A stretch of 64,000 nt of DNA. It comes from Candidatus Eiseniibacteriota bacterium (GTDB taxonomy: Bacteria > Eisenbacteria > RBG-16-71-46 > JABDJR01). Position 1 is the first letter of the stretch; the number at the start of each line of letters is the position of its first letter. The position numbers and the translations under genes are program-made. The DNA lies in NCBI GenBank assembly GCA_963762255.1, contig CAVXKA010000003.1:352001-416000 (forward strand), read 5' to 3'. Shown one piece after another: positions 14,403 to 31,418 of the stretch. The notes below the pieces were generated by a model. The model was not told the DNA's origin and ran no database searches. It saw nothing but the letters and a program-made list of their open reading frames with translations.

Positions 14403-14433
14403 GGATCCCGCTGTGGCGCTTGCGCGCCGCAGA

Positions 14434-16251
14434 TCAGGGGCGCGGGGCGAGGTAGAGATCGCCGACCACGGAGGGCTTCTCGCCCACCGGGCCCATGAAA
14501 CTGCGCACGACGAACATCGCCCGCAAGTGCTCGCTCTCGGCGGTGAGCCGCATCATGGGAGCGGGTAACGAAGGACCGCCCGACGTGTCGCGACGATACG
14601 CGCGCGCCGCCTCGATCATGCCGTCCACCGGAAGGGTGAGCACCGAGTCGCCGTCGGCGAGGACCACGAACGCGCGCCGATCTCCGTCGTAGTCGAACAG
14701 GAATCGCCGGCCATCGGCTGCGAACTCCGCAGGGAGCGACCGCTCCACGCGGCAGGCGTATGCGTAGCCAGTGATAGGAACCGCGGTCGAATCCGCCTCC
14801 GCGATGAGATTCACCGACGGGCCCGAAGCGCCCTCGGGCAGAACCTCCCACCGGCCCACGTACTCGAGGCCCAGCCGCCCCATGGCCACCGACGCGGCCC
14901 GCACCTGCGGGGGGCCGTCCTCCAGCCGCCCCTTCGTCTCGTCCCCCACCGCCGGCGCCGGCAAGTCGCCGAACCACGGCCGCAATGTCCCCGCCCCGTG
15001 CACGTCCACCAGGTACTCGAGAACCCCGCTCAACTCGCGCCGTGTCTCGAACGAGACCGAATCGGCGGCCGTGGCCGGACGGATCGCGGTTCCCGTCCAG
15101 AGCCCGTTCGCGGTGAGCAGGTGATCGAGCCGCGCCTCCTGGCTTCGGCGCGATACCGCGTACGCACCCCAAGGTCCGAGAGATGTGACGAGCGCAAGCA
15201 CCGCGAGCGTCGCCGGCACGACCTTGATGTTGCCGGGACGGCGCACGGTGAAGTAGACGGCGATTGCGGCGAGCCAGAGGGCGAGCACGATCAGGAAGTA
15301 GCGGTTCTCGGTGATGCCGTACTGATCGACCCGCTTCCAGATCGCCAGAAGGAGCATGGCGATCGACGGCAGGAGCGCGATGTAGAAACCGCGCGCGTAG
15401 GTTCGCACCCAGCGGTTCTCGGGCCGGTCCTGGATGGGGTGCACGAGCAGGAGCGAGAGCATGCCCACCACGGCCACGCACGACACGAGGTACCCGATCC
15501 AACCGCTCGGCCACACCCCGGTGGCGATGATGCGCATCATGTAAGCGGTGAGGATCACGATGTAGACCGCGACGATCGGAGTGAGGATGTACTGGCTGAA
15601 GAGCTTGAGCCCGGGCGGGTAGTCCTCGCGGCGGTCCAGGGCGGGAAGATCGGCGGGCACTCCTCCCAGGAAGAACCACGTGTTGAAGACGAACGCGATG
15701 ATGACGAAGAGCCTCGGATAGATGGTTTCCTCGAAGTCGACGCCCAGCAACTTGTCGAGGGCCAGCAGAGCGATCGCGAGCCCGGCGAAGAGCACCCCGG
15801 AGTAGAGGGCCGATGTGAGCGCGCGCATGAAGAGCGCCCGGTTGAATTGCCAGAAGCCGTTGCGCTCGCCGGGGACCATGAAGGGAAGGTAGGCGACAAG
15901 CAGGTGGAAACCGACCGCGAGCTGCACGGTGCGACGGAATCGGATCCCCTCGGACCAGTGAGGCCAGAGCAGAAAGAAGGCGATCAGCACCACCAGCGCG
16001 ATCAGGTGAGGCAGGATGACGAGGCGTCCCCGGAGGCGCCGGCGCTCGCAGGAGAGCGTGACGACGATGAGGAGAGAAATACCGAGGGCGGCGGTGACCA
16101 GGGTGCGGATGAGATCGTCGTGGGGCGGGTGGTCGTCCATCGCCGCGACACCGGCGACGGCCGCGACGGCAGCCGAGACCAGCGCCGCCGGAAATCTCCA
16201 CAGCGTGGCCCGGGCACCGACGAGGATCAACTGCAGGGACGGGAAGCGCAT
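14434..16251 (-). CDS. DUF4153-family polytopic membrane protein
   Basis: About 11 hydrophobic segments; FWQFN, YILTPIVAVY, RVDQYGITENRY, SRRSQ motifs. Confidence 0.8.
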   Translation of the reverse strand: MRFPSLQLILVGARATLWRFPAALVSAAVAAVAGVAAMDDHPPHDDLIRTLVTAALGISLLIVVTLSCERRRLRGRLVILPHLIALVVLIAFFLLWPHWSEGIRFRRTVQLAVGFHLLVAYLPFMVPGERNGFWQFNRALFMRALTSALYSGVLFAGLAIALLALDKLLGVDFEETIYPRLFVIIAFVFNTWFFLGGVPADLPALDRREDYPPGLKLFSQYILTPIVAVYIVILTAYMMRIIATGVWPSGWIGYLVSCVAVVGMLSLLLVHPIQDRPENRWVRTYARGFYIALLPSIAMLLLAIWKRVDQYGITENRYFLIVLALWLAAIAVYFTVRRPGNIKVVPATLAVLALVTSLGPWGAYAVSRRSQEARLDHLLTANGLWTGTAIRPATAADSVSFETRRELSGVLEYLVDVHGAGTLRPWFGDLPAPAVGDETKGRLEDGPPQVRAASVAMGRLGLEYVGRWEVLPEGASGPSVNLIAEADSTAVPITGYAYACRVERSLPAEFAADGRRFLFDYDGDRRAFVVLADGDSVLTLPVDGMIEAARAYRRDTSGGPSLPAPMMRLTAESEHLRAMFVVRSFMGPVGEKPSVVGDLYLAPRP

Positions 16252-16272
16252 CGCACCCCCATCGCGTTCAAG

Positions 16273-16363
<91 letters not shown>

Positions 16364-16403
16364 GCAAGAACGCGCCGTTGGCTGAACCAAAAATGGGCAC
16401 GGA

Positions 16404-16433
16404 AAACTACCATACCCTTGTCCGGATTGGCAA
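16404..16433 (-). promoter_or_regulatory. Probable sigma70 promoter of tRNA-Ser(GCT)
   Basis: TTGCCA-18 nt-TAGTTT with extended -10 TG, ~40 nt upstream of the tRNA. Confidence 0.5.
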
Positions 16434-16461
16434 CCGAGGGGCAGGGCACTGCCGGGATCGA

Positions 16462-16809
16462 TCAGGCGGGGATCGGTTCGTGCATCTCGCCGTTGGGGTA
16501 GTACGTGCGGTCGAAGACGATCACATGCTTCGTCTCGTCCTCGACCATCATGCGCACCCAGTGCTTGGCGTCGGGCGCGATCACGTAGAGCCGCTCGCTC
16601 AGCCGCTCCGCGGCATCGTAATTATCGATAGGGACCCAGGCCCCCCAGAGGGCGTCCGTGCTGTGAACATGGGCGGTGTAATCGGATTCTTCCATCAGAG
16701 ACCGCAGCCCCGCGAACACGGTCTGGCAGTCCTCGGACTGAATGCAGATCGTGTAGTTGCCGCGGAGCGCGCAGGCCCGGTAGTCGCAAGGCTTCTGGCT
16801 CTTTCCCAT
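16462..16809 (-). CDS. Hypothetical protein (115 aa) between the two tRNA-Ser genes
   Basis: ORF MGKSQKPCDY... with GGAGG RBS; normal globular composition. Confidence 0.55.
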   Translation of the reverse strand: MGKSQKPCDYRACALRGNYTICIQSEDCQTVFAGLRSLMEESDYTAHVHSTDALWGAWVPIDNYDAAERLSERLYVIAPDAKHWVRMMVEDETKHVIVFDRTYYPNGEMHEPIPA

Positions 16810-16918
16810 GTCGCATCCCCCTCCCACAATTCCACCTTCCAGCAAATATTCTGCCGTTTCTTCGGGGGGGATCTCTAGAACCTAATGTCGATACGAGTTA
16901 TCTACAATCGACAATGAC

Positions 16919-17075
16919 CTGGGATGCTCCCGCTCGGCGCTCCGCGCCTCGCAGGAGATCCCGCAACCGCAATGCAAGACCTTGGCGGAGGGACTGGGAT
17001 GCTCCCGCTCGGCGCTCCGCGCCTCGCAGGAGATCCCGCAACCGCAATGCAAGAACTTGGCGGAGGGACTGGGAT
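16919..17075. repeat. 75-bp tandem repeat (2 units plus 7 bp) that re-copies the tRNA-Ser(TGA) 3' end
   Basis: CTGGGAT at 16919, 16994 and 17069; the units differ at one base and carry ATCCCAGTCCCTCCGCCA (minus strand). Confidence 0.92.
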
Positions 17076-17145
17076 TCGAACCCAGGGAGCCTTTCGGCTC
17101 ATCGGTTTTCAAGACCGACGCCTTCGACCGCTCGGCCATCCCTCC
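17058..17145 (-). tRNA. tRNA-Ser(TGA)
   Basis: GGAGGGA/TCCCTCC acceptor stem, TCGGT-CT-TGA-AA-ACCGA anticodon arm, variable arm, GGTTCGAATCC, CCA. Confidence 0.97.
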
Positions 17146-17342
17146 CGCAGGGGCCTTCGCCCACGAGGAACCGAAGCTTACCCCAGGGCGACCTCTCACG
17201 TCCCCGGGTCCGCGCCGCACTCGATCTGGTCGACGGTCGGGAACGCCTCTCCCCCCGCAACTTCCCGCGACGCGCTGCCCCCCCCCGCTAAACCGAAGTC
17301 CGGCGCGGAACTCCCCCTGCAGGTGTGATAGCCTCATCCGTC

Positions 17343-18089
17343 ATGAGCCCGCTGTATGACTGGGATGAGGGCGAGTTTCTCTCGCCCGAGGAGGAGAGGA
17401 TGATCGACGAACTCGAGGCCATGCTGCGCCCGCCCGTACTTCCGATGGCGCCCTACCCCGCCAAAGCCATCACGCTGGCCAGCGGCGAGATCATGGTCGT
17501 GCGCCAGGCTTCGGTGGACGAGGTCGACGCCATGCTGAGGTACATTCAGCCGCTTTCGTGGCTGAAACGTGACTTCTACGACATCGTGTCGGCAAGGCTC
17601 TTCGCAGAACTGCTCGGCTGGAAGACCTATCGTGTCCGCAACGAATACTGCCTGGTCGGCGTCATCGACGGCGTCTTGGCCGGCATCGTCAACGGCCGCA
17701 TGTTCGACGAACAGCACGGCATCAGCTACCACACGCTCGCGCTCAAGCGCGGGCTGCGCGTGGGCGCGCATCTCTTTGCGGCGAAGATGGAGCACCACAT
17801 CGAGTACCTCGGCCAGGATGAGGTGTGGATCGTCGCCGAGAGCCCGATCGGCCACCGGCGCTGGATGATCGAGTACCCGCTCGACACCAAGTTCGAGATC
17901 CAGCACGAGCTGGGCGGCGCACCGTCCTGGATGCTCTCCCGCGAGACCTACTTCAAGGCCAAGTCGCGATTGGTGAGCGGCACTCGCCCGGTGTCCGACG
18001 AACTCCTCGCCAAGTCCTATCCGCTCAAGGAGCCCGACCTGCGCACGATGCTCGTGCAGATCGACGACACGCTGGAGGCGCGGCTATGA
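17343..18089 (+). CDS. GNAT-fold acetyltransferase-like protein
   Basis: Motif-A-like RGLRVGAHL; ATGA overlap with the thiolase gene; start uncertain (17343 or 17400). Confidence 0.6.
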   Translation: MSPLYDWDEGEFLSPEEERMIDELEAMLRPPVLPMAPYPAKAITLASGEIMVVRQASVDEVDAMLRYIQPLSWLKRDFYDIVSARLFAELLGWKTYRVRNEYCLVGVIDGVLAGIVNGRMFDEQHGISYHTLALKRGLRVGAHLFAAKMEHHIEYLGQDEVWIVAESPIGHRRWMIEYPLDTKFEIQHELGGAPSWMLSRETYFKAKSRLVSGTRPVSDELLAKSYPLKEPDLRTMLVQIDDTLEARL

Positions 18090-19270
18090 GAGACGTCGCC
18101 ATCGTCGGAGTCGGATCGACGCAGTTCGGGCGGGCGCAGTGGAGCCTGCTCAAGATGATGGCCGAGGCGTCGAACGACGCGGTCAAGGACGCCGGCCTAG
18201 GCAAGAAGAAGATCGACGCGGTCTATGTGGCCAACATGGGCTCGGCGCGGAACAACCGGCAGGCCGGTCTCGCCAGCGCGCTGGTGGACCGCCTGAACCT
18301 CTACCCCGCCGCCGCCGACACCGTCGAGAACGGTCCGGCCTCCGGGGCATCTGCGGTCAAGAACGGGTTCTACGCGATCGCCTCCGGCATGTGCGATCTG
18401 GTGTTGGTCTGCGGCGGCGAGCGCATGCGCGAGGTGAACAATTTCGAGGCGACCGAGTTCGTCTCGTTCCTGTCCCACCGCTACGCCGAGTACGTCTACG
18501 GCATCACGCTGCCGTCGCTGGCCGGCATGTTCGCGCGGCTCTACATGCATCGTTACGGGGTCACCGCGGAGCATCTCGCGATGGTGGCGATCAAGAACCA
18601 CGCGAACGGGGTCCTCAACCCCAAGGCGCACCTGCGCGCCCCGATCACCATGGAGGGGATCCTCACCGGCCCCGACGCCATGATGAACAACCCGTGGGTG
18701 GCGGATCCGCTTCGCTTCTACGACTGCTGCCCGGTGAGCGACGGAGCCTCGGCGCTGTTGCTCGCACCTGCCGCGATGGCCAAGGAATTCGGCAAAGCCC
18801 CGGTCAAGATCGCCGGCATGGGCCAGGCCACCGACACCCAGACCGTCCACGAGCGGCCCGATCCGACCGAACTCACCGCGGTGCGGCTCGCCGCGGAGAA
18901 GGCGTTCAAGATGGCGGGGCTCGCGCCCAAGGACATCGGCGTGGCCGAGCTGCACGACGCCTTCACGATCCTCGAGATCGCGGAGAGCGAAGAGGCCGGA
19001 TTCTTCAAGAAGGGCCAGGGCCACAAGGCGCTGGAGCGCGGCGAGACCAAGATCGGCGGGAAGCTGCCGATCAACCCGTCCGGCGGGCTCAAGGCGCGTG
19101 GACATCCCGTCGGCAACACCGGCGTGTCGCAGATCGTGGAGCTGGTGCTGCAACTGCGCGGCGAGGCCGGCGACTATCAGGTTCCGAACAAGCCGAAGAA
19201 CGGTTTCGCGGTCAACTTCGGCGGGTTCGGCAATAACGTGCTCGCCACCGTGCTGCAAGGGGGGATGTGA
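18086..19270 (+). CDS. SCP2/archaeal-type thiolase-fold protein lacking the catalytic Cys
   Basis: VAIVGVG, DCCPVSDGA, ELHDAF, NPSGGLKARGHPVG; the usual E-x-A-C-A-S-G site reads ENGPASG. Confidence 0.9.
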   Translation: MRDVAIVGVGSTQFGRAQWSLLKMMAEASNDAVKDAGLGKKKIDAVYVANMGSARNNRQAGLASALVDRLNLYPAAADTVENGPASGASAVKNGFYAIASGMCDLVLVCGGERMREVNNFEATEFVSFLSHRYAEYVYGITLPSLAGMFARLYMHRYGVTAEHLAMVAIKNHANGVLNPKAHLRAPITMEGILTGPDAMMNNPWVADPLRFYDCCPVSDGASALLLAPAAMAKEFGKAPVKIAGMGQATDTQTVHERPDPTELTAVRLAAEKAFKMAGLAPKDIGVAELHDAFTILEIAESEEAGFFKKGQGHKALERGETKIGGKLPINPSGGLKARGHPVGNTGVSQIVELVLQLRGEAGDYQVPNKPKNGFAVNFGGFGNNVLATVLQGGM

Positions 19271-19271
19271 G

Positions 19272-19610
19272 ATGGCCCGCACCGTGGATGCCGCCAAGTG
19301 CAAGGGTTGCGGCAAGGTCTCCTATCCGATGCACTTCTACTGCCCCGCCTGCGGGGCCACGAAGTTCGAGCCGGTACCGGTGGAGGGAGAGGGGAAGCTC
19401 CTGACCTGGACGCGGGTGTATACCCTGCCCCTCGACTACTCCGATCTCTACATCACGCTCGGGATCGTGGAGCTGGACATGGGCGTGCGCGCCACCGGCC
19501 GCCTGGATATCGCCGAGCCCGAGATCGGTGCGCGGGTACGCGCGCGGGTCGGCAAGGTGCGCGAGATCAACGGCAACGATGTGACGGGTCTGATCTTCAG
19601 CACGGTGTGA
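19272..19610 (+). CDS. DUF35 Zn-ribbon/OB-fold thiolase partner
   Basis: CKGC...CPAC, GKLLTWT, then OB-fold; directly after the thiolase. Confidence 0.9.
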   Translation: MARTVDAAKCKGCGKVSYPMHFYCPACGATKFEPVPVEGEGKLLTWTRVYTLPLDYSDLYITLGIVELDMGVRATGRLDIAEPEIGARVRARVGKVREINGNDVTGLIFSTV

Positions 19611-19638
19611 CCGTCGGGCGCCGCGCGGGAGGGATACG

Positions 19639-20496
19639 ATGAGCAGCTTCCGCTATGAGCGGCCCGGGAGTGTCGCGCAAGCCACGGCGCTTCTGGCCGA
19701 AGCGCCCGGTCGGGCGCGCGTGCTGGCCGGGGGGACCGATCTCATGGTCGCCCTTCGCTCCGGCGCCGCGCGTCCCGAGCTGGTGGTGGACGTGAAGCGG
19801 ATCCCCGAGCTCTCGGAGATCCGCTGGACTCCTGAAGGCGCGCTTGTCTTGGGCGCGTGCGTGCTGGTGCAGGACGTCGCCATGGATCCGCGGATCCGTG
19901 AGACGTTTCCCGCGCTCTCCGAAGGCGCGCTCGCCATCGGATCGCTCCAGATCCGCTCGCGAGCGACGATCGGCGGCAATCTGGCCAATGCGTCGCCGTG
20001 CATGGACACCGCTCCCCCGCTGCTCATCCTGAACGCGCGGATCCGCGCGGCGGGCCCGCAGGGCGAACGCGAGATCCCGCTCGCCGAGTTCTTCCGCGGC
20101 GTGAAGCAGACGGCGCTCGCCGCCGACGAGATGCTCACGGCGGTGCTGGTGCCCAAGCCGCCTGCCGGGTTCCGCGCGGCATTCGACAAGATCAAGCGCG
20201 TCTACGGCCACGACCTGGCGCTGGTGAACGCGGCGGCGGGCTTCGACCCGGGCGCGGGCACGTTGCGCGCCGCCATCGGAAGCTGCGGCATCACCCCCGT
20301 GCTCACTCCCCTCCTCACCGGCATCGACCCGGCCGGCGACGCCCGGGAGGCAGGAACGCGCCTGGGGGCGCTGGCGCTCGAACACATCTGCCCCATCGAC
20401 GACGTGCGCTCCTCCGCCGAGTACCGGCGCGACATGACCGTCGCCCTCTGCCGGCGGATGGTGGCGCGGCTCCTCGGCGGGTCGAGGAAACGATGA
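19639..20496 (+). CDS. Xanthine-dehydrogenase-family FAD-binding subunit (CoxM/XdhB-like)
   Basis: LAGGTDL, IGSLQIRSRATIGGNLANASP, PIDDVRSSAEYR. Confidence 0.93.
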   Translation: MSSFRYERPGSVAQATALLAEAPGRARVLAGGTDLMVALRSGAARPELVVDVKRIPELSEIRWTPEGALVLGACVLVQDVAMDPRIRETFPALSEGALAIGSLQIRSRATIGGNLANASPCMDTAPPLLILNARIRAAGPQGEREIPLAEFFRGVKQTALAADEMLTAVLVPKPPAGFRAAFDKIKRVYGHDLALVNAAAGFDPGAGTLRAAIGSCGITPVLTPLLTGIDPAGDAREAGTRLGALALEHICPIDDVRSSAEYRRDMTVALCRRMVARLLGGSRKR

Positions 20497-23369
20497 TGAA
20501 GACCCACGCAATCACGCTCACCGTCAACGGTGCGACGTCCACGCTGGAAGTGCCGGCGGAGCGAACGCTGCTCGAGCTGCTCAAGGGCGGCTTCCACCTG
20601 CAAAGCGTCAAGGGGGGCTGCGGCATCGGCGAGTGCGGCGTATGCACCGTCGTCATGAACGGCCGCCCGGTGAACGCGTGCCTCGTGCTCGCGGTGGAGG
20701 CGGACGGCGCGGTCATCGAGACCGCGGAAGGCATGACCGAGGACCTCGGCGTGCTCTCCGACCTCCAGCAGGCCTTCATCGACTTCGGCGCCGTTCAATG
20801 CGGCTTCTGCACGCCGGGGATGCTCAACTCCGCGCGCGCGCTGCTCGCGGCAAACCCGCATCCGTCGCGTGAGGAGATCGTCGAGGCGCTCTCCGGCAAC
20901 CTGTGTCGATGCACCGGCTACGAGCCGATCATCCAGGCGGTGGAGGCTGTGGCGTCGGGAACGTACCGCGCCGCCGAGCCGCTGTCGGGCCCGTTCGTCG
21001 GCGGCGGGGCCCCGCGCTTGGACGCGGCGGCCAAGGTCACCGGCTCCGCGGTTTTCGTGCACGACATGACGCTTTCGGGGATGCTTCACGCACGCATTCT
21101 CACCTCTCCGCATCCCGCCGCGCGCATCAAGCGCATCGACACCTCCAAGGCCCGCGCGATGCCGGGGGTCCGCGCCGTGCTGACCGGCGCCGATCTCCCT
21201 TACAAGCTCGGCCTCTACATGGAGGACAAGGACATCCTCGCCCGCGGGGTGGTGCGCCATCAGGGCGAAGCGGTGGCCGCGGTCGCCGCCGAGACGGTCG
21301 CGCAGGCGCGCGCCGCGTGTCGCGCGATCGAGGTGGAGTACGAGCCGATCGAAGCGGTGCTCGACGTCGAGGAAGCGCTCCGCGAAGACGCGCCGCAGGT
21401 GCACCCCGATCTCGCGAACTACTCCTGGATGAAGGGGGTCTTCTTCCCGCAACCCGGCAAGAACATCGCCCACCAGCAGAAGATTCGCAAAGGGGACATC
21501 GCGAAGGGCTTCGCCGAGGCTGACCGCGTGTTCGAGTTCAGCTTCCGCAACCCGCCGGTGCAGCACGTGCCGCTCGAGACGCATACCGCTATCGCCACAG
21601 CGCGCGCGGACGGCGAGGTCGAGATCATCACCTCGGCGCAGTCCCCCTTCACCGTGCGGCACCTCTTCTGCCACACCTTCGCCATGCCGCTCCAGAAGGT
21701 GCGGGTGAAGGTGCCCTATGTCGGTGGCGGCTTCGGCGGCAAGGCCGGCATCCATCTGGAGCCGTTGGTGTACTGCTTGTCCAAGGCCGCGGGCGGCCGA
21801 CCGGTGAAGATCACGGCCACGCGCGAGGAGGAGTTCAACACGCTTCCCTCGCGGCAGGGGCTGCGCAGCCGCATCAAGACCGGGGTGAGCAAGGACGGAC
21901 GCATCGTCGCGCTCGAGATCGCGTATCACTGGGACGCCGGCGCCTATGCGGACTACGGCGTGAATATCGGGCGCGCTGCCGCCTACTCGGGCGCGGGGCC
22001 GTACGTGGTGCCCAACTGCAAGCTCGATTCGTACGTGGTCTATACGAACAAGATTCATGGCACGGCCTACCGAGGCTTCGGCCATCTCGAAGTGCTCTGG
22101 GGCATCGAGCGCAACATGGACCTCGTGGCGCGGGCGCTGGGGATGGACTCCTTCGAGTTCCGCATGAAGAACCTGCTCCGTCCCGGCGAGACCACCATCA
22201 CCGGCGAACTCGTGACCGAGAGCCACGGCAGGCCAGATGAGTGCCTGCGTCTGGTGGCCGAGGCAATCGGCTGGGATCCCAAGGCCCGCGCCTCCGCGCC
22301 GGTTGCGCCGGGTTCGGGCGTGGTGCGCGCGAAGGGGCTGGCCATGGTCCACAAGGCGCCGGCCATGCCTACTTTCACCTCGTGCTCGGCCACCATCCTC
22401 ATGAACGGCGACGGCTCGGCCAACGTGCTGGTGAGCGGCGTGGATTACGGTCAGGGCACCTATACCACGCTGGCGCAGATCGCCGCTGACGAGCTCAAGT
22501 TGCCGCTCAACAAGATCCGGGTCCCGTGGGACAGCGACACCGATTTCACACCCTACGATTGGCAGACCGTGGCGAGCCGCTTCGCGGTGATGGGCGGAAA
22601 CGCGGTCATCGAAGCCGCGCGCGACTGCCTGCGCCAGATCAAGGAGGTCGCCGCGCAGGCGCTCCAGGCACCGGTCGATCAGATCGAATGCGGGGACGGC
22701 AAGGTCTGGACGCGGGGAGCGCCTGATCACGCCCTCGACTACAGCAAGATCGTACTCGGTTACACCTATCCGAACGGCAACAGCATCGGCGGGCCGGTGA
22801 TCGGACGCGGGCGCTACATCGCGACCGGGCTCACCAACCTGGACCCGGAGACCGGGCAGGGGCTCCCCGCTCTCAACTGGACCTACGGCGCGCATGCGGT
22901 GGATCTCGAGGTGGACACCGATACCGGACACGTCCGCGTGCACACCTTCGCTTCCGCGTTCGACGTCGGGAAGGTGCTCAACCTCCAGCAGTGCAAGACG
23001 CAGGTCATCGGGGGTGTGATTCAGGGGCTGGGATCGGCGGTCATCGAGAAGTTCGTGTTCGACAAGGGGCGGCTCGTCAACAACTCCTTCGTGGACTACA
23101 AGATTCCCACCGCGAAGGACATCCCGACGGAGATGAAGCAGTTCTTCGTGGAGACGCCGCATCCGCAGGGGCCGTACGGGGCGCGCGGCGTCGCCGAGCA
23201 CCCGATGATCTCGGTGCCGAGCGCGGTCGGCAACGCGGTCGCCAACGCCACCGGGGTCGAGTTCTTCGAGCTGCCGTTGGATCCGGAGCGGATCTACCTG
23301 ACGCTCAAACGCGCCACGGAGGGGAAGCCGCAGCCTGCGACGGACGCGGCCCGGGTGGCCAGGAAGTAG
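20493..23369 (+). CDS. Xanthine-dehydrogenase-family molybdoenzyme, fused 2x[2Fe-2S] and molybdopterin domains (958 aa)
   Basis: GCGIGECGVC, QCGFCTPG, NLCRCTGY, GGGFGGK, AYRGFG, GQG, GARGVAE; ATGA overlap at 20493. Confidence 0.93.
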   Translation: MMKTHAITLTVNGATSTLEVPAERTLLELLKGGFHLQSVKGGCGIGECGVCTVVMNGRPVNACLVLAVEADGAVIETAEGMTEDLGVLSDLQQAFIDFGAVQCGFCTPGMLNSARALLAANPHPSREEIVEALSGNLCRCTGYEPIIQAVEAVASGTYRAAEPLSGPFVGGGAPRLDAAAKVTGSAVFVHDMTLSGMLHARILTSPHPAARIKRIDTSKARAMPGVRAVLTGADLPYKLGLYMEDKDILARGVVRHQGEAVAAVAAETVAQARAACRAIEVEYEPIEAVLDVEEALREDAPQVHPDLANYSWMKGVFFPQPGKNIAHQQKIRKGDIAKGFAEADRVFEFSFRNPPVQHVPLETHTAIATARADGEVEIITSAQSPFTVRHLFCHTFAMPLQKVRVKVPYVGGGFGGKAGIHLEPLVYCLSKAAGGRPVKITATREEEFNTLPSRQGLRSRIKTGVSKDGRIVALEIAYHWDAGAYADYGVNIGRAAAYSGAGPYVVPNCKLDSYVVYTNKIHGTAYRGFGHLEVLWGIERNMDLVARALGMDSFEFRMKNLLRPGETTITGELVTESHGRPDECLRLVAEAIGWDPKARASAPVAPGSGVVRAKGLAMVHKAPAMPTFTSCSATILMNGDGSANVLVSGVDYGQGTYTTLAQIAADELKLPLNKIRVPWDSDTDFTPYDWQTVASRFAVMGGNAVIEAARDCLRQIKEVAAQALQAPVDQIECGDGKVWTRGAPDHALDYSKIVLGYTYPNGNSIGGPVIGRGRYIATGLTNLDPETGQGLPALNWTYGAHAVDLEVDTDTGHVRVHTFASAFDVGKVLNLQQCKTQVIGGVIQGLGSAVIEKFVFDKGRLVNNSFVDYKIPTAKDIPTEMKQFFVETPHPQGPYGARGVAEHPMISVPSAVGNAVANATGVEFFELPLDPERIYLTLKRATEGKPQPATDAARVARK

Positions 23370-23378
23370 GAGGCGCGC

Positions 23379-24957
23379 GTGTCCGGCTTCGTGCTGGTTC
23401 GCAAGGATTCGTACCACGACTCGGTGCTCCTCATGCGCCTCTCCCAGGCGCTGAAGGGCTTGGCCGGCGTCGAGGACGCGACGGTCGCGATGGGCACCCC
23501 GCAGAACCGCGCGCTCCTCGAAGCGCAGGGGTACGGCGGGGACGCGCTCGCCGCGGCCGGTCCCAACGATCTCGTGATCGCGGTGACGGGGAGGCGCGGA
23601 CACCCCGCGCGCGGTGGAGGAAGAGTTCGAGAAGCTCCTCCACGCGGAGCGACCGGCAGGCGTGGAGGACGTTCGCCCCACGTCGCTCGCCGCGGCGGTG
23701 AAGGCGCATCCCGAGTCCAACCTCGTTCTCATCTCGGTGCCCGGTGAGCACGCCGCGCGGGAAGCGCGCCGAGCGCTCCATCTGGGCCGGCACGTCATGC
23801 TCTTTTCCGACAACGTCACCGTGGCGGACGAAGTCGCGCTGAAGAAGGAAGCGGTCGAGCGCGGGCTCCTCATGATGGGGCCCGACTGCGGCACGGCGAT
23901 CGTCAACGGCCTGCCGCTCGGCTTCGCCAACGCGGTGCGCCGCGGCGCGATCGGCATCGTGGGCGCGGCCGGCACCGGCATCCAGGAAGTGTCGTGCTGC
24001 ATCCATCGCATGGGTGGAGGCGTCTCGCAGGCCATCGGTACCGGCGGGCGCGATCTCTCCGAAGCGGTGGACGGCGCGATGATGCGTCTCGGCATCGAGG
24101 CGCTCGCCGCCGATCCCGCCACGCGCGTGATCGTGGTCGTCTCGAAACCCCCGGCGGCGTCGGTCGCGAATTCCGTCATCGCCGCGCTCGCGGCCACGGC
24201 GAAACCCTGTGTGGCGCACTTCATCGGCGACGAGCCGCGTGTCGACGACACGGCTCACGGCGTCTTCTTCGCCGAATCGCTCTCCGGCGCCGCCGAGAGC
24301 GCGTGCCGCCTGGCCGGGCTGGACATCGCCACGACGACCTCCGCGCCAGACGCGGCACAGGTCGCCGCGCTTGCCGCGCGCCTCTCACCGGGCGCCGCCT
24401 TGCGCGCACTCTTCTGCGGCGGCACCACCGGCCAGGAGGCGCTCGTGCTGCTCTCACGGGCGGGCATGGAGGTGCGCTCGAATCTTCACAAGCACGGCGC
24501 GCTGCGCGTCGACGGCACCGAATCCGTGCGCGGGCATGTACTGCTCGACCTGGGCGACGACGTGTTCACGCGAGGCCGGCCGCATCCCATGATCGAGCCC
24601 GAGCTACGAAACGAGCGCCTCGCGGTGGAGATGGGCGACCCCGACGTAGGCCTCCTTCTCTTCGACTGCGTGTTGGGCTACGGCGCGCATCCCGATCCCG
24701 CCGGGGTCCTTGCCGAGGGCGTGAACCGCGCCCGCGATACAGCGCGCACCCGCGGGCGCGATCTCGTTGCGGTGGCCTCAGTGACGGGGACGCCGGACGA
24801 TCCGCAGGATTCCCGCGCGCAGACGCTCGCGCTGGAGGCGGCGGGCATCGTGGTCGCGGCCGACAACCGCGCGGCCGCGGCGCTGGTCGCCGCAGCGCTC
24901 ACCGCGGCGTCCACAGCACCGGGCTCCACAAAGGCGACCCCGAAAGGGCGGGCGTGA
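23379..24957 (+). CDS. fdrA: FdrA/AllF-family acyl-CoA synthetase-like protein, frameshifted near 23590-23615
   Basis: YHDSVLLM...AMGT in one frame; ISVPG, FSDNV, GPDCGTA, GTGGRDL, DLGDD.FT.GRPHPMI in the next frame. Confidence 0.85.
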
Positions 24958-26399
24958 TGGATACGCGCAAGCTCGAGTCGCTCTTCGGTGAAGAACTCAA
25001 CGTCATCAACGTCGGGCTCCCCTCCTTCGCGGCCGAGCTGCGGCGCGCCGGCGGGAACGCGGTGGACGTCGACTGGCGCCCGTCCGCGGGAGGCGATCCG
25101 CGGGTGCAGGACGCGCTCGACGTTTGTCTCACCCCCGACGGGGCCGTGCGCGACGACATCGCGGTGGCCACGCGGCGTTCCGTAGATCGCCTCCTCGAAG
25201 CGAAGCCCACGATCACCGGCATCGGGCGCGCGCTCGACGTGATCCCCGGCATGCGCAAGGAGTTGATCCTGCACGCCGGACCTCCGGTGACATGGGATCG
25301 CATGAGTGGGCCCACCCGAGGCGCGGTCATGGGAGGGCTCGTCTACGAGGGCCTGGCCAAGACCCCTGAAGAGGCGGAGCGACTCGCCGCGTCCGGCGCG
25401 GTGACCTTCGAGCCATGCCACCACCATGCAACGGTGGGACCGATGGCGGGGATCGTCACCGCATCGATGCCGGTGTGGATTCTCGAGAACACCGCGTTCG
25501 GCAACTGCTCCTACGCGACACTGAACGAAGGTCTCGGCAAGGTGCTCCGCTACGGCGCCTACAGCGACGAAGTGATCGACCGCCTGCGCTGGATGGAGCG
25601 CGTGCTGGCCCCGGCGCTCGCGGAGACACTCGCGAGTCACGGGCCGCTCGACCTGCGCAGCCTCATCGCCCAGGCCTTGCAGATGGGCGACGAGGTACAC
25701 AACCGCAACCGTGCGGCAACATCCCTGCTCATCCGCGCGCTCGCGCCGCATCTGGTGCGCACGCGGTTCGCGGCCGACGACATCGCCCAGGTCCTGCGGT
25801 TCCTGGACGGCAACGACCACTTTTTCCTCAACCTCTCGATGGCGGCTGCCAAGTCCGCGTTGGACCCGGCGGCGGGGATCGCGGGCTCGAGCATGATCAC
25901 CGTCATGGCGCGCAACGGCACCGACTTCGGAATCCAGGTGTCCGCGCTTCCTGGACGCTGGTTCACCGCGCCGGCGCCGATGGTGGAGGGTCTCTATCTC
26001 CCCGGCTTCACCGCCGCCGACGCCGCACCCGACATCGGCGACTCCGTCATCACCGAGACCGCCGGCCTCGGTGGGATGGCCATGGCCGCCGCTCCCGCCA
26101 TCGTGCAGTTCGTGGGTGGAAGCGCCTCGCAGGCGCTCGCCTTCACCCGCCGCATGTACGGGATCACGCTCGCCGAGCACCCGACGTACAAGATCCCTGC
26201 GCTCGATTTTCGCGGCACCGCCACCGGCATCGATCTTCTCAAGGTGGTCGAGACCGGTGTGGTGCCGGTCGTGAACACCGGCATCGCTCACAAGCGGCCC
26301 GGCGTCGGCATGGTCGGCGCGGGCCTCGTCAAGCCGCCTTTCTCATGTTTCGCGCAGGCACTTCTCGCCTTCGCGGAATCGCTCGAGCCTTCCGCGTAG
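24957..26399 (+). CDS. DUF1116 protein (YlbE/YahG, AllG-like)
   Basis: ILHAGPP, VGPMAG, NEGLGKVLRYGA, MGDEVHNRN, NDHFFLN, ARNG, DIGDS, NTGIAHK. Confidence 0.9.
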   Translation: MDTRKLESLFGEELNVINVGLPSFAAELRRAGGNAVDVDWRPSAGGDPRVQDALDVCLTPDGAVRDDIAVATRRSVDRLLEAKPTITGIGRALDVIPGMRKELILHAGPPVTWDRMSGPTRGAVMGGLVYEGLAKTPEEAERLAASGAVTFEPCHHHATVGPMAGIVTASMPVWILENTAFGNCSYATLNEGLGKVLRYGAYSDEVIDRLRWMERVLAPALAETLASHGPLDLRSLIAQALQMGDEVHNRNRAATSLLIRALAPHLVRTRFAADDIAQVLRFLDGNDHFFLNLSMAAAKSALDPAAGIAGSSMITVMARNGTDFGIQVSALPGRWFTAPAPMVEGLYLPGFTAADAAPDIGDSVITETAGLGGMAMAAAPAIVQFVGGSASQALAFTRRMYGITLAEHPTYKIPALDFRGTATGIDLLKVVETGVVPVVNTGIAHKRPGVGMVGAGLVKPPFSCFAQALLAFAESLEPSA

Positions 26400-26432
26400 A
26401 GACCTGCGCGGAAAAGGCACAACGGAGGACCC

Positions 26433-27425
26433 ATGAAGCTCATCGACCTGACCGTTCCCCTCGGCATCGGCACCCCCGCGTGGCCCACCTACGAACCGCT
26501 GCAGATGAAGTACTTCAAGCGGCTCGCACCCAACGGCGCCAACGGGCAGATCATCACCCACTCCAACCACGTGGGCACCCATCTCGACGGCGAGATCCAC
26601 TTCTACACACCCGGCAAGGACATCGCCGCCCTGAAGCTCGACTACCTCGTCGGCGAAGGCGTGGTCGTGGATCTCTCCGATTGCTGCGGCGATTACGACG
26701 TCTACACGTCAAAGATGGTGGAGGATCGCGCCGAGGTGCACGACGGCGACATCCTCATCGTTCACACCGGCTACCATCACTTCGGTTGGGACCAGCCCAC
26801 CGCGGACGAGATCAGTTACATGGTCAAGCACCCCGGCCCCGACCGCGAGTTCGCCGATTGGGCAAAGCGTCGCAAGATCCGCTGGATCGGCGTGGACTGC
26901 GGAAGCGCGGACCATCCGATGAACACGATCATCCGCGATTGGATGCCCCGCCAGGCGCGTCAGGCCGATGCCCACTTCCGCAAGAAGTACGGCAAGCCCT
27001 TGGCCGAGTACTACGACGACTCCAAGTACCAACTCATGCACCTCGAGATGTTCAACCACGGGATCATTCACGCCGAATGCCTGGGCGGAGACATCGACCT
27101 GCTACTGAACCAGCGGGCCACGATCGGCTGCTTCCCGTGGCGGTTGGTGGACGGCGAGTCGTGCATCTCTCGGATCGTCGCGTTCGTCGACGACAAGCGC
27201 TACGACGAGCTGATGAAGGTGAAGGCGCAGTACACGCTCACCAAGTGGGGCGACATCGCGGGATCGCTGGCGCCGCAGCTCCACGGCAAGAAGCGCCCGG
27301 GACCGGCGGCGGCGAAGAAGGCCGCACCCAAGCGCATCATTGCCTCCAAGAGCAGTGCCGCCCCCAAGGCCAAGGCCGTCCCCAGGCGCGAGGCCGCGCC
27401 CAAGGCCAAGAAGTCCGGACGCTGA
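26433..27425 (+). CDS. Cyclase-family metal hydrolase (kynurenine formamidase/isatin hydrolase fold) with Lys/Ala-rich tail
   Basis: DLTVPL, HVGTHLD (HxGTHxD), GVDCGSAD, HAECLGG; RBS GGAGG. Confidence 0.88.
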   Translation: MKLIDLTVPLGIGTPAWPTYEPLQMKYFKRLAPNGANGQIITHSNHVGTHLDGEIHFYTPGKDIAALKLDYLVGEGVVVDLSDCCGDYDVYTSKMVEDRAEVHDGDILIVHTGYHHFGWDQPTADEISYMVKHPGPDREFADWAKRRKIRWIGVDCGSADHPMNTIIRDWMPRQARQADAHFRKKYGKPLAEYYDDSKYQLMHLEMFNHGIIHAECLGGDIDLLLNQRATIGCFPWRLVDGESCISRIVAFVDDKRYDELMKVKAQYTLTKWGDIAGSLAPQLHGKKRPGPAAAKKAAPKRIIASKSSAAPKAKAVPRREAAPKAKKSGR

Positions 27426-27433
27426 GACACGCG

Positions 27434-28228
27434 GTGCGCGTCGGCCCGCTCGCGGCCGGCGCGCTCACCCTCGGCGCGCGGGGACGCGTGGTGTCCGTGC
27501 ACCGGCAGGCCGTGAACCTCCGCCTTGAGGACGGGCCGCTGGTAGCCCTCCTCCCCGAGGGGACGGCGCTTCACCCCTGGGCGCTCGCCGCTCCGCTCGA
27601 CTGTTCGCGCCTCGCACCGGGCGATCCGTTCGATGTCTCGAACGACGCTCTCGAAGTCGGTTCGCTTCGCGTCACGCTGGAAGGAGCGGAGACCGTAGAG
27701 CTTCGACTTCGCGCGCGGCCGATGGTCTGGCCCGCGGGCGCGATGATGACGATCACCGCGTTGCTCGTGCGGCGCCCGCACGACAGCCCCTTCGATGCGG
27801 TGCTCTCCGAGACACTGGCTCGTTTCAGCGCCGGTGGCGATACGCGCGATCTCCTCGATCTCGTCGGCCTCGGCGAGGGCCTCACCCCATCCGGAGACGA
27901 CATCTTGGTGGGAGTCCTGGCCGGACTGGACGCGCTCGCGGAGATTCCCGGCGGCGCGAGCGTGGAACGCAGCGCGCTCTGCGCCACGCTCACGCCCGAA
28001 CACCTCGCACGCACGAACGCGCTCTCCGCGCAGATGCTCGCGGCGGCCTCGGCGGGCCTCTACGCGGAACCTGTCCTTTGGATGGCCCAAGCACTCTCAG
28101 CGGAGCCAGGGGCGATCGATCAAGCGGCGAAGGCGCTCCTCGCCGTGGGCCACCGCTCCGGCGAAGATACGCTGCGCGGCATGGCCATGGCGCTCGGAAG
28201 GGCGCGAAGCCGCGCCGCCTACCTATAG
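27434..28228 (+). CDS. DUF2877 protein (YlbF/YahE, AllH-like)
   Basis: GLGEGLTPSGDDILVG and VGHRSGED motifs; start approximate (GTG 27434). Confidence 0.82.
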   Translation: MRVGPLAAGALTLGARGRVVSVHRQAVNLRLEDGPLVALLPEGTALHPWALAAPLDCSRLAPGDPFDVSNDALEVGSLRVTLEGAETVELRLRARPMVWPAGAMMTITALLVRRPHDSPFDAVLSETLARFSAGGDTRDLLDLVGLGEGLTPSGDDILVGVLAGLDALAEIPGGASVERSALCATLTPEHLARTNALSAQMLAAASAGLYAEPVLWMAQALSAEPGAIDQAAKALLAVGHRSGEDTLRGMAMALGRARSRAAYL

Positions 28229-28235
28229 AAAGTCC

Positions 28236-28787
28236 TCAGCCACGGCCACCGTTGCTCTTCGGGAGCTTAGCGGTGCCCTCGGACGCTACGCGGCTCGCCC
28301 CGGCGAGCGCCTCGGCGCCCTCCTGCGATTCATCCGCGCGCGCCACCTTCTTCTGGGCCGCGCCGAGGAGCTGCGCCACTCCGTGGAGGATAGCCTCGGG
28401 GCGGGCCGGACAACCCGGGATGTACATGTCCACCGGGATGACCTTGTCCACGCCGCCGACCACGTTGTAGGTATCGAACCACGGTCCGCCCCCCACCGCG
28501 CACGCACCGATGGCGATCACGATCTTGGGATCGGGGACGGCAGCGTAGAGCCGCTTCAAGGGCTCGCGCATCGGCCGGGTCACAGGCCCGCACACGAGAA
28601 GGACGTCGGCATGTCGAGGCGATCCGACCAACCGCATGCCCAGACGCTCCACGTCGAAGTACGGGGTGAGCGCGTCGAGCACTTCGATGTCGCAGCCGTT
28701 ACACCCACCGACGTTCGTGTGAAACACCCAGAGCGATCCGGTGAATGCCTTCGGGAAGGCACGTTGCAGAAGTCCGTCCATCGGCAT
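28236..28787 (-). CDS. hyfI: Group 4 [NiFe] hydrogenase small subunit (HyfI/HycG, NuoB-like)
   Basis: GGCNGCDIE, SPRHAD, IGACA, IPGCPARP. Confidence 0.9.
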   Translation of the reverse strand: MPMDGLLQRAFPKAFTGSLWVFHTNVGGCNGCDIEVLDALTPYFDVERLGMRLVGSPRHADVLLVCGPVTRPMREPLKRLYAAVPDPKIVIAIGACAVGGGPWFDTYNVVGGVDKVIPVDMYIPGCPARPEAILHGVAQLLGAAQKKVARADESQEGAEALAGASRVASEGTAKLPKSNGGRG

Positions 28788-28807
28788 TCAGTTCGCCTCC
28801 TTCCCCG

Positions 28808-30286
28808 TCACATCCGCGCCACGAGATCGAGCAGCGGGTCCAGGATCTGCGGGCGCAGGCCCAGCGCCAGGATCGCGGCGACCAGCATCGCCATCGCCCA
28901 CCGCATCGACGCCGGCACCTCGTGGATCTCCTCCAGCACCAGCTCGGAGGAATGCGGCCGCCCGCGGAACACCCGCTGCACCATCGCGGTCATATACGCC
29001 ATGGTGAGGAGCCCCACCGCGGTCGCGATCCCCATCGCCCACCAAGAGCGCGCGTCGGCGGCGGCAAGAACGACATGCGTCTTGGCCATGAACCCGCTGA
29101 ACGGCGGCATCCCGGCCAGCGACAGAGCGCCCACCAGCGCGCACGCCGCGGTCACCGGCATCCGCCGCTGCAAGCCGCCGAGAGCGGTGAGGCTGCGGAT
29201 TCCGTGCGCCGCGTAGATCACCGCCCCGGTGGATAGGAAGAGCAACCCCTTGGTCAGCGCATGGCTCACCAAGAAGAACACTGCGGCGTAGTAGCCGAGC
29301 GGCGGACCGACGCCGAGCGCCACCGCGATGTAGCCCACCTGCGACACGCTCGAGTACGCGTGCAGGCGCTTCAGGTCGTCCTGCACGATGGCCAGCGCAC
29401 CGCCCACCACCATCGTGAACACACCCAACCAGAGCAGCGTCTCGTTGAGAGCCGGGTACTTCGATCCGTAGACGCTCCACACCCGCAGGATCCCCACGAA
29501 GGGCACCTTGATGATGACGCTGGAGAGAAACGCGCTCATCACCGCGGGGGCCTCGGCGTGCGCATCCGCCACCCAGGGGTGGAACGGGGCAAGACCCGCC
29601 TTCGTGCCGAAGCCGATCAGGAGCAGAACCGTGGCGATGAGCACGATGTGCGACGGGATCTGGTCGGAGACACGCTGGAGGTTGCTGATGAGGAGCGCGG
29701 AATCGTTGCCCAGATGCGGCGCCGCCGCCGCGTAGAGCAGCACGCAGCCCAGGAACGCGGAGGTGATTCCCACCGTGAGCAGGAGCAGGTACTTGTAGCC
29801 CGCCTCCAGCGCGCGTTTGTCCCAATAGAAGGAGACGAGGAGCGCCGAAGCGACCGTGGTGGCCTCGAGCGCGACCCACAGGAGCACGATGTTGTTGGTC
29901 ATCACGACCCACAACAGCGTGAACTCGAGCACGAGGAAGAGCGCGGTGAACATGGGCAGGCGCCGTTCAAGGCGCATCCGGCGCTCGGCCTCCCGCAGGT
30001 GCACGCCGGGAAGATAGGCCAGCGAGTACACCGAGCACACCAAGGCGAGGAAGGTGATCAAGAGCGCCATGATCGCGGCCAGGCCGTCCACGAGGATCTC
30101 GCCGTGCAGTGCCTCGATGGGTCCCACCGAAGCCACCTGCCCCGCCTGGATCGCGGCCAGCCCCAGCGCCAGCGCGCTCGCCGCCACCCAGACCGGCTTG
30201 CGCGCGCGCCCCCTGCCTACGAACGCCAGGGCCGCCGCGGCCAGCGGAACCGCCAGGAGTGCGATCGGGATCCAGGCCGTCACCAT
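28808..30286 (-). CDS. hyfF: Antiporter-like membrane subunit (HyfF-like)
   Basis: LWVALEATT, ALEAGYKY, GFGTKAGLAPFHPWVADAHAEAP, LKRLHAYSS; start MVTAWIP. Confidence 0.85.
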   Translation of the reverse strand: MVTAWIPIALLAVPLAAAALAFVGRGRARKPVWVAASALALGLAAIQAGQVASVGPIEALHGEILVDGLAAIMALLITFLALVCSVYSLAYLPGVHLREAERRMRLERRLPMFTALFLVLEFTLLWVVMTNNIVLLWVALEATTVASALLVSFYWDKRALEAGYKYLLLLTVGITSAFLGCVLLYAAAAPHLGNDSALLISNLQRVSDQIPSHIVLIATVLLLIGFGTKAGLAPFHPWVADAHAEAPAVMSAFLSSVIIKVPFVGILRVWSVYGSKYPALNETLLWLGVFTMVVGGALAIVQDDLKRLHAYSSVSQVGYIAVALGVGPPLGYYAAVFFLVSHALTKGLLFLSTGAVIYAAHGIRSLTALGGLQRRMPVTAACALVGALSLAGMPPFSGFMAKTHVVLAAADARSWWAMGIATAVGLLTMAYMTAMVQRVFRGRPHSSELVLEEIHEVPASMRWAMAMLVAAILALGLRPQILDPLLDLVARM

Positions 30287-30936: not shown

Positions 30937-31418
30937 CACCCCTCCCGCCCGGGGGCGCCGTTGCCGGGGGCCAGAAGCTCCGGTTCGTCGACGCGCGGCC
31001 CCACGCAACTCAAGTGATCCAGGGGATGCGCGGGGACGTAGCACCTCCCGCACCGGTCGCAGACCGCCATGAACAGCCGTTGCTCGATGAAGAGATCGCG
31101 CCGGTCGGACGTGCCCAGCTCCCAGTCCGCAACAAGTCGCACCGCGCCGTACGCGCAGGCGTCTTCGCAGCGGCCGCAGTGCAGACAACGGTCGAGGTAG
31201 CGGCGGATCACCCGGGTGACGGCGTCGATGTCGGTGATCCGGATGCAGCGCGAGGCGCAGACATCGGCGCAGCCGCCGCACCCGACGCACTTCTCGGTGT
31301 CGACCGTCACACGCCCGCGAAACTCCGGCGCAGGCGCGAGCGGGGCCAGGGGATAGCCCACCGTCGCCCGCGGGTTGCGCAGGCCGAAGGCCAGTTGCTT
31401 GAGCTTCGATCCGATCAC
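30936..31418 (-). CDS. hyfH: 2x[4Fe-4S] subunit (HyfH/HycF, NuoI-like)
   Basis: T.GYP...FRG, CVGCGGCADVC, CLHCGRCEDAC, CDRCG; GTG start with GGAGG. Confidence 0.85.
   Translation of the reverse strand: MIGSKLKQLAFGLRNPRATVGYPLAPLAPAPEFRGRVTVDTEKCVGCGGCADVCASRCIRITDIDAVTRVIRRYLDRCLHCGRCEDACAYGAVRLVADWELGTSDRRDLFIEQRLFMAVCDRCGRCYVPAHPLDHLSCVGPRVDEPELLAPGNGAPGREG

Follow-up and report, generated by a model that had tools for sequence, protein, structure and literature searches.

We analysed a cluster of nine genes, here called g1 to g9, which fills positions 17343-28228 of a 64,000-nt window (the whole stretch of DNA studied) from Candidatus Eiseniibacteriota bacterium (GCA_963762255.1, CAVXKA010000003.1:352,001-416,000, forward strand). 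The cluster is real, conserved, horizontally spread and catabolic. Our preferred reading, which we put forward tentatively and with a little less than even confidence, is that it breaks down a pyrimidine-like cyclic ureide, most likely uracil or thymine via barbiturate, in four steps. All four steps are inferred from family membership and gene context. The enzyme logic is known in kind and consists of a Mo hydroxylase, a ring hydrolase and an AllFGH-type carbamoyltransferase. We found no description in print of this combination, of the probable pyrimidine substrate or of the g1-g2-g3 module: a full-text literature search, which did not cover supplements, returned no paper on either g1 or the gene set. 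What g1-g3 do chemically, and which substrate is broken down, are offered as hypotheses.

The window has a G+C content of ~67% and its raw lists of open reading frames (ORFs) are crowded. Genes were called with a GC3 frame plot and a simple gene caller, and families were assigned by Pfam and NCBIfam. The original prediction described nine co-oriented genes with several start/stop overlaps, and the gene calls agree with this: all nine lie on the + strand, with 4-nt overlaps at three junctions (g1/g2, g4/g5 and g6/g7). The remaining intergenic gaps measure 1, 28, 9, 33 and 8 nt. The genes are as follows.

17343..18089, +: g1, 248-aa protein of a compact uncharacterised family, putative divergent GNAT fold
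18086..19270, +: g2, thiolase fold without catalytic cysteines (Thiolase_N/C_1, NF004720)
19272..19610, +: g3, DUF35 protein, ChsH2-type zinc ribbon and OB fold (PF01796, PF12172)
19639..20496, +: g4, FAD subunit of an XDH-family molybdoenzyme (FAD_binding_5, CO_deh_flav_C)
20493..23369, +: g5, fused 2x[2Fe-2S] and molybdopterin subunit, 958 aa (Fer2, Fer2_2, Ald_Xan_dh_C, MoCoBD_1/2)
23379..24957, +: g6, fdrA/allF homologue (NF004760) with a 1-base insertion near 23592
24954..26399, +: g7, allG (DUF1116) homologue (PF06545, 333 bits)
26433..27425, +: g8, cyclase-family metal hydrolase ('cyclase-1'), 330 aa (PF04199 on residues 4-161)
27434..28228, +: g9, allH (DUF2877) homologue (PF11392)

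Recurrence of the cluster across phyla

The genes had been proposed to form one unit that co-occurs elsewhere, and a neighbourhood check now supports this. We scanned g1 loci using one genome per species and scored genes by tblastn with the window proteins; 80 of 109 loci were kept. Judged by record titles, the loci span about a dozen phyla, covering Eisenbacteria, Acidobacteriota, Riflebacteria, Actinomycetota, Sumerlaeota, Fibrobacteraceae, Phycisphaerales, Chloroflexota (many Anaerolineae), Bipolaricaulota, Thermotogota, Spirochaetota, Armatimonadota and one bin labelled archaeon. Among cultured bacteria, Longilinea arvoryzae KOME-1 (Chloroflexota) carries the whole set, and the cyclase of Bellilinea caldifistulae belongs to the same 90% cluster as its cyclase. 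Over the 80 loci g1 was found in 80, g2 in 79, g3 in 77, the cyclase in 47, the FAD subunit in 45, the Mo subunit in 38, FdrA in 34 and AllG in 33, and g1-g8 are complete in 18. Among the 22 loci of at least 20 kb, the cyclase was present in 19, FdrA in 18, and AllG and the Mo subunit in 16 each. Gene order is shuffled between phyla, with g1-g3 placed between fdrA and allG in L069 and L078, which argues for selection on co-location.

The same association was seen at the level of genomes. Four of five genomes without the cyclase and AllG at the g1 locus have a 73-85% identical cyclase and AllG side by side elsewhere. In a sample of 121 genomes from the organism's own phylum, g1 was found in 13, AllG in 12 and both in 12, while AllG was present in 0 of the 108 g1-negative genomes. 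In a sample of 151 Anaerolineae genomes, g1 was found in 5, AllG in 51 and a cyclase orthologue (at least 73% identity) in 37; all five g1-positive genomes have AllG and the cyclase, and 35 of the 37 cyclase-positive genomes have AllG. These counts point to a core made of the FdrA/AllG/AllH trio and the cyclase, with g1-g3 as an add-on that, in the samples tested, is never present where the core is missing. In many genomes AllG is followed by cyclase genes, in line with the earlier proposal that the cyclase works with the trio. Chance co-location was considered as well and is ruled out by the recurrence in 80 loci of many phyla together with the phyletic co-occurrence.

Proposed ring hydroxylation, ring opening and carbamoyl transfer

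In the first step of the proposed pathway, g4 and g5 would hydroxylate the ring with water as the oxygen donor. Together they have the complete domains of the XDH/aldehyde oxidase family (2x[2Fe-2S], FAD and Mo-cofactor), and both score below all NCBIfam equivalog cut-offs. The solved structures nearest to g5 are D. gigas aldehyde oxidoreductase and 4-hydroxybenzoyl-CoA reductase alpha. The Glu in the GARGVAEHP motif of g5 aligns with a Glu of both enzymes, and we take it to be the catalytic Glu. The enzyme resembles XdhD-YgfM of the E. coli reductive uric acid pathway in having a fused Fe-S/Mo subunit of ~956-958 aa and a separate FAD subunit. However, the scores of the cluster's enzyme are well under the cut-offs of the Se-dependent models, and the partners ygeW/X/Y, ssnA and ygfK are all absent from the cluster. 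XdhD-YgfM itself belongs to anaerobic nucleobase catabolism, as stated in the available part of PMC12507026. Two more XDH-family loci of the same genome (C1:667393-675113 and C2:642588-646834) adjoin amidohydrolase genes, one dihydroorotase/hydantoinase-like and one TRZ/ATZ-like. The organism seems to have several N-heterocycle pathways.

The gene context supports an N-heterocycle as substrate, as the original prediction had it, and speaks against the indole, pterin and pyridine compounds that it named, the linked transporters being UraA-like NCS2 permeases and Bmp-type ABC systems. The UraA-like NCS2 permease is the commonest linked transporter, present in 11/80 g1 loci and in 6/20 g1-negative cyclase-1 loci. 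It scores 232 bits with the uracil permease model, 193 with RutG and 147 with xanthine permease, all below cut-off. It carries the motifs PESTAH and G-E-N-N-S-L-M-A-I-T-R (pattern G-E-N...T-R), which are similar to the Glu/His/Glu that bind uracil in UraA. In 3/80 loci a Bmp-type ABC system was found. In the actinobacterial locus L013, a GntR regulator is encoded together with a TRZ/ATZ-type deaminase and an amidohydrolase of dihydropyrimidinase/dihydroorotase-like type.

The same enzyme logic, in which a ring is hydroxylated and opened and an N-acylurea is phosphorolysed, could also serve a different substrate, for example a modified base, a triazine or hydantoin derivative, or a CoA-bound heteroaromatic acid. 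We regard this as possible but doubtful. It would agree with a Mo subunit whose closest relative, 4-hydroxybenzoyl-CoA reductase, has a CoA ester as its substrate, with the TRZ/ATZ-type deaminases near the clusters in L013, L029 and L031, and with the EamA transporters, not nucleobase permeases, that precede g1 in 6/80 loci, all from Eisenbacteria. Moreover, allFGH adjoins biuret/triuret genes in nitrifiers, according to the available part of PMC12625717. Against it stand the UraA-like permeases as the commonest linked transporter. In addition, cyclase-1 and g1 are very highly conserved between phyla, which suggests a universal metabolite.

Returning to the uracil/thymine pathway, in step 2 g8 would open the ring, giving an N-acylurea (ureidomalonate or its methyl form). 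g8 retains the metal motif H-x-G-T-H-x-D-x-x-x-H, its HVGTHLDGEIH aligning to the kynurenine formamidase motif. In the available part of PMC10470551, members of the cyclase family open rings at C-N bonds (isatin hydrolase) and at C-C bonds of a cyclic 1,3-dione. With isatin hydrolase, kynurenine formamidase and dihydrophloroglucinol cyclohydrolase g8 shares the PF04199 domain and the His/Asp metal motif. It differs from the solved members in its low similarity (E 8e-07), in a C-terminal extension of ~170 residues and in forming its own very conserved orthologue group (68-87% identical across phyla), always near allG. A second type of FdrA/AllG cluster, present in L107, L108, L045, L047 and many Anaerolineae, has a tandem pair of paralogous cyclases immediately behind allG (40-48% identical to g8), often with XDH genes of its own and NmrA-like and DinB-like proteins. 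This tandem-cyclase cluster probably acts on a related but different ring compound.

In step 3, g6, g7 and g9 would transfer the carbamoyl group to phosphate, giving carbamoyl phosphate and a dicarboxylate monoamide (malonamate). This step is proposed because of the 41-46% identity to AllF/AllG of E. coli, where AllFGH acts on oxalurate. The three subunits FdrA, DUF1116/AllG and DUF2877/AllH are encoded together (NF004760, PF06545, PF11392), with identities to the E. coli proteins of 46% for AllG (YlbE), 41% for FdrA (with the intact relative L007 as query) and 31% for AllH (YlbF). According to the available part of PMC11326118, purified E. coli AllFGH converts oxalurate and Pi to oxamate and carbamoyl phosphate, and the oxamate left by the trio is not used further by E. 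coli. The original prediction had implied a different reaction for the trio. By its sequence the trio of the window is compatible with the same class of reaction, in which the carbamoyl group of an N-acylurea passes to phosphate, and its substrate may be the same as, or homologous to, that of the E. coli enzyme.

Compared with E. coli AllFGH and AllK, all three subunits are present here and the same class of reaction is expected. In contrast to E. coli, the trio has no allB/allC/allD/allE context, carbamate kinase is unlinked (0/80 loci), the cyclase gene lies inside or beside the trio, and the trio is linked to an XDH-type enzyme and to g1-g3. In addition, the last ~50 FdrA residues are encoded at the start of allG, g7 residues 8-55 matching FdrA model positions 504-551. 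The earlier statement that carbamate kinase and allantoinase are missing holds: there is no carbamate kinase within the window, and no allantoinase reaches the cut-off anywhere in the genome. The genome's only carbamate kinase, on contig C1 and unlinked to the cluster, could convert the carbamoyl phosphate to ATP. Its operon (C1:641858-645778, L081/L082) also holds two carbamoyltransferases, one above the aspartate carbamoyltransferase cut-off and the other ornithine-carbamoyltransferase-like and below cut-off.

The fdrA gene is split over two frames, 23379-~23594 and 23614-24957. Its N-terminal part matches NF004760 positions 4-69, and the remainder matches positions 103-496 in a different frame. 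The offset is 235 nt in the window and 234 nt in relatives, and the DNA alignment places one extra base within 'ACGGGGAGG'. Contigs of the sequencing runs X4 and X10 omit one base at 23592. The count of left-out letters at 23592 is 0 for X1 and X2, although the X1 contig that spans the site (4 differences in 349) and the X2 contig have one gap each. The fdrA frameshift is thus probably an assembly error. Two adjacent ORFs on the - strand resemble a second frameshift: 34095-35042 corresponds to the second half, and 35000-35908 to the first half, of a single Proton_antipo_M subunit of the hydrogenase-linked membrane complex described below. This second apparent frameshift fits indel errors in this assembly.

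A plain oxalurate branch would offer another explanation, with the trio as a true oxamate carbamoyltransferase. The cyclase would then open a five-membered cyclic ureide (e.g. parabanate), made by the Mo enzyme from a purine or hydantoin precursor, and an amidase or g1-g3 would handle the oxamate. The identity of FdrA and AllG to the E. coli enzyme and the further XDH/amidohydrolase loci of the genome would be in line with this. The cyclase-family isatin hydrolase opens a five-membered alpha-keto lactam (PMC10470551, available part), and the reference list in the available part of PMC11326118 includes a 1965 title on enzyme induction by parabanic acid. Family III CoA-transferases, found in 4/80, 1/5 and 3/20 loci, score with the CoA:oxalate and formyl-CoA transferase models, below cut-off. 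On the other hand, no TPP-type oxalyl-CoA decarboxylase was present in the loci annotated, no allantoinase passed the cut-off, the permease is closer to the uracil than to the xanthine models, and decarboxylation of oxalyl-CoA on a thiolase fold would be chemically unlikely. Moreover, an mmdA-like carboxyltransferase (733 bits) adjoins fdrA in L104/L105 and also occurs in L045, L051, L108 and L125, and a methylmalonyl-CoA mutase in L040. The carboxyltransferase, CoA-transferase and mutase neighbours fit a malonyl/methylmalonyl unit and fit an oxalyl unit poorly. We consider the oxalurate branch unlikely. As to purine genes elsewhere in the genome, which the original prediction had counted as a point against itself, the other XDH/amidohydrolase loci and the unlinked carbamate kinase are present, and no allantoinase exceeds the cut-off.

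After hydroxylation at C6, the C4-C5-C6 portion of uracil or thymine would end up as a malonyl or methylmalonyl unit, so that these neighbours fit the preferred pyrimidine pathway. The Longilinea cluster is flanked by ackA (acetate kinase) and an ADP-forming acyl-CoA synthetase. The oxidative pyrimidine pathway consists of uracil/thymine dehydrogenase, barbiturase and ureidomalonase. The pathway proposed here would share with it the intermediates barbiturate and ureidomalonate, and a first step of water-dependent hydroxylation by a Mo-Fe-S flavoprotein. It would differ in that a cyclase-family hydrolase replaces barbiturase, that cleavage of the ureide is phosphorolytic and energy-conserving instead of hydrolytic, and that the C3 amide is handled by g1-g3 or an omega-amidase-like enzyme. 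The AtzD/TrzD-type barbiturase (PF09663) had no match in the genome, in a search without positive control, as the control found none anywhere. If the pathway is of the oxidative pyrimidine type, it would use non-homologous enzymes.

The g1-g2-g3 module

The g1 family is compact, isolated and without a Pfam model. g1 had no match at threshold in Pfam, NCBIfam or PDB sequences, and the g1 alignment, used as a profile against the PDB, had 0 matches at E<=10. Homologues number 2874 at E<=0.001; the matches listed (n=120) are 72-97% identical, and wherever a source names them the name is 'hypothetical'. Identity across phyla is 58-88%, and 60 columns are invariant in an alignment of 38 sequences; H130, E150, H152 and E166 of g1 are invariant residues. 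A profile search of 1.84 billion representatives returned just 221 proteins, most of them fragments and none from outside the family. Three longer proteins contain g1 (g1 with thiolase, EamA with g1, and one other); each is a singleton, and we rejected them as natural fusions, since they are probably miscalls.

The original assignment of g1 to GNAT is a sub-threshold call with three weak signs in its favour. Acetyltransf_1 matches the window g1 below threshold (E 0.059), and 4/17 family members scanned gave E 0.01-0.06, also below cut-off. Language-model neighbours of the Longilinea g1 homologue in the Atlas are named N-acetyltransferase and include PF00583 clusters; the Longilinea copy itself is an 'N-acetylglutamate synthase' in GenBank and hypothetical in RefSeq. 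However, no match reached threshold, and hhalign of g1 with nine GNAT domains of the same genome matched 19 columns at a probability of 9%, so that the GNAT fold is not established. A divergent GNAT fold is the probable assignment.

In g2 the thiolase N- and C-terminal domains are present (PF00108, PF22691), and NF004720 scores 426 bits (cut-off 420). The nucleophile motif, (A)ACASG in solved thiolases, reads ENGPASG in 74/75 homologues, and at the HDCF site of SCP2/archaeal thiolases g2 has HDAF, with four columns invariant in 22 aligned homologues; the His of GHP is kept. As Pro replaces the nucleophilic Cys and Ala the Cys of HDCF, both catalytic cysteines are gone, and g2 would be unable to form the thiolase acyl-enzyme. 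Judging from these motifs, g2 should not be filed as an active thiolase, and the C-C cleavage by thiolase that was first proposed is not supported. In g3, the zinc-ribbon residues C10, C13, C24 and C27 are invariant in 25 sequences.

The pair resembles known thiolase/DUF35 assemblies in combining an SCP2/archaeal-type thiolase fold with a zinc-ribbon/OB DUF35 protein and a third partner. Matches of g2 in the PDB include chains 6esq/6et9, 7pxp, 6ok1 and 5m3k, which we take to be the archaeal thiolase-HMG-CoA synthase-DUF35 complex, BbsAB, the Ltp2-ChsH2 aldolase and PhlACB, respectively. In the archaeal thiolase/HMG-CoA synthase complex, DUF35 holds the partners together, a part that g3 might play between g1 and g2. 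Cysteine-less thiolase and DUF35 pairs are known as aldolases, and ketosynthases with a replaced active Cys are known as decarboxylases. The module of the window differs from these assemblies in the two cysteine replacements and in its presumed third partner, which is a GNAT-like protein of a new family and not a thiolase-superfamily enzyme.

The position of g1-g3 in the pathway was deduced from the loci with a permease. Of the 11 g1 loci that have a permease, 10 are arranged as cyclase-1, g1, g2, g3, permease, FAD, FeS and Mo subunit. The g1-negative loci L109, L120 and L127 have cyclase-1, CN_hydrolase, permease, FAD, FeS and Mo subunit. A CN_hydrolase was present in 4/5 of the first g1-negative loci (three directly beside the cyclase) and in 7/20 of the next (six directly beside the cyclase). 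Among solved structures, this hydrolase is closest to yeast YLR351C and mouse Nit2, presumably omega-amidases acting on dicarboxylate monoamides. Since an omega-amidase-like hydrolase takes the same slot, and since the E. coli trio leaves oxamate, a monoamide, we place g1-g3 after the trio and acting on the monoamide. In the genome of the window, no CN_hydrolase of the omega-amidase type and no family III CoA-transferase was found at E<=1e-15.

In step 4, the weakest of the model, g1-g2-g3 would thus process the monoamide, perhaps to acetyl-CoA. One possible route would pass the acyl group to CoA and decarboxylate the malonyl-thioester to acetyl-CoA on the thiolase fold. In other lineages the slot is filled by the omega-amidase-like hydrolase, which may be accompanied by a CoA-transferase and an mmdA-like decarboxylase. 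A bolder version, which we rate as rather improbable, makes g1-g2-g3 a new enzyme complex. The GNAT-like g1 would run N-acyl transfer backwards, moving the acyl group of malonamate to CoA, the cysteine-less g2 would decarboxylate malonyl-CoA and so pull the unfavourable step, and DUF35 would channel the intermediates. With the trio, this would amount to an oxygen-independent 'oxidative' fermentation of pyrimidines that yields carbamoyl phosphate and acetyl-CoA.

That g1-g3 lie outside the ureide pathway, as an unrelated CoA-ester module travelling along (e.g. an aldolase-type Ltp2/ChsH2-like lyase with an acetyltransferase), is quite improbable. In its favour, most Anaerolineae with the trio and cyclase have no g1-g3, the module stands apart from the other genes in Bipolaricaulota loci, and 6ok1 is among the matches of a g2 that forms the kind of pair known in aldolases, but AllG was found in 12/13, 5/5 and 4/5 of the g1-positive genomes tested, and g1-g3 are inserted between fdrA and allG (L069, L078) and between cyclase and permease (10 loci).

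Several observations weigh against the uracil/thymine pathway or against the place given to g1-g3 in it. The Mo subunit resembles aldehyde oxidoreductase and 4-hydroxybenzoyl-CoA reductase more than any enzyme of purines or pyrimidines, and XDH homologues can act reductively too, as described in the available part of PMC12507026. The genome of the window has no NCS2 permease at the thresholds used, and the carboxyltransferase was found in just 2/80 and 1/20 loci, plus 3/5 hand-picked ones. An AllG identity of 46% would be equally expected under true oxalurate specificity. Carbamate kinase is common in the phylum regardless of g1 (90/121 genomes; 13/13 of the g1-positive) and was discarded as an uninformative marker. 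In L112 and L121 (cyclase, permease, FAD subunit) the slot holds none of the query genes, and CN_hydrolase and g1-g3 coexist in 5/80 loci, contrary to a clean replacement. A direct re-search of five g1-negative Anaerolineae genomes found no g1, and one of the five has a g2 orthologue (ENGPASG) directly after the cyclase. The trio and cyclase are far commoner than g1 in Anaerolineae; g1-g3 are an optional add-on, and their position in the pathway is tentative.

Genomic setting and implications

Upstream of the cluster lie 2-oxoacid:ferredoxin oxidoreductase genes. An ORF at 3-5009 (-), open at the window edge and read over 1668 aa, has POR_N, POR, PFOR_II, several 4Fe-4S and a TPP-binding domain, as in a fused 2-oxoacid:ferredoxin oxidoreductase-like protein, and is followed by a 728-aa ORF without a family match. 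Directly downstream, on the opposite strand, 28236-41384 (-) holds a formate-hydrogenlyase-like set with the large and small subunits of a group-4 NiFe hydrogenase, antiporter-like subunits, a HycI protease, a Mo-bisPGD oxidoreductase and an FAD/NAD Fe-S protein. The cluster had been called anaerobic; this is not established, since the genome encodes cbb3 oxidase subunits.

Two tRNA genes, tRNA-Ser(GCT) at 16273-16363 and tRNA-Ser(TGA) at 17058-17145, both on the - strand, lie just upstream of g1, and many foreign contigs pile up at them when read-derived contigs are mapped. Given the patchy distribution of the cluster, this site could be an island border. A search for Rfam riboswitches at gathering score gave 0 matches in 7 loci, and an Rfam scan of window positions 14000-29000 found the two tRNAs and nothing else. 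A promoter/terminator scan gave a signal not above that of shuffles. In the metatranscriptome run X10, a 7243-nt contig covers 17277-23530 at ~92% identity. This shows that the g1-g5 stretch of a relative is present in the RNA library and is no proof of a transcript. At most 0.34 of the window's words occurred in any sequencing run. As the runs therefore hold relatives, no claim on habitat or expression is made for this organism.

Oxygen-free catabolism of pyrimidines and ureides is known mainly via the reductive route. If the pathway proposed here is true, it would be an energy-conserving route that starts with hydroxylation and is shared by bacteria of soil, sediment and bioreactors from about a dozen phyla, and would add a major pathway to the recycling of N and C. 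It would also give the FdrA/DUF1116/DUF2877 enzyme its first function outside allantoin breakdown, explain the cyclase genes that accompany this enzyme, and assign a role to the very conserved g1 family, which has no Pfam model. The hypothesis is open to direct testing, as the cultured Longilinea arvoryzae KOME-1 has the full set.

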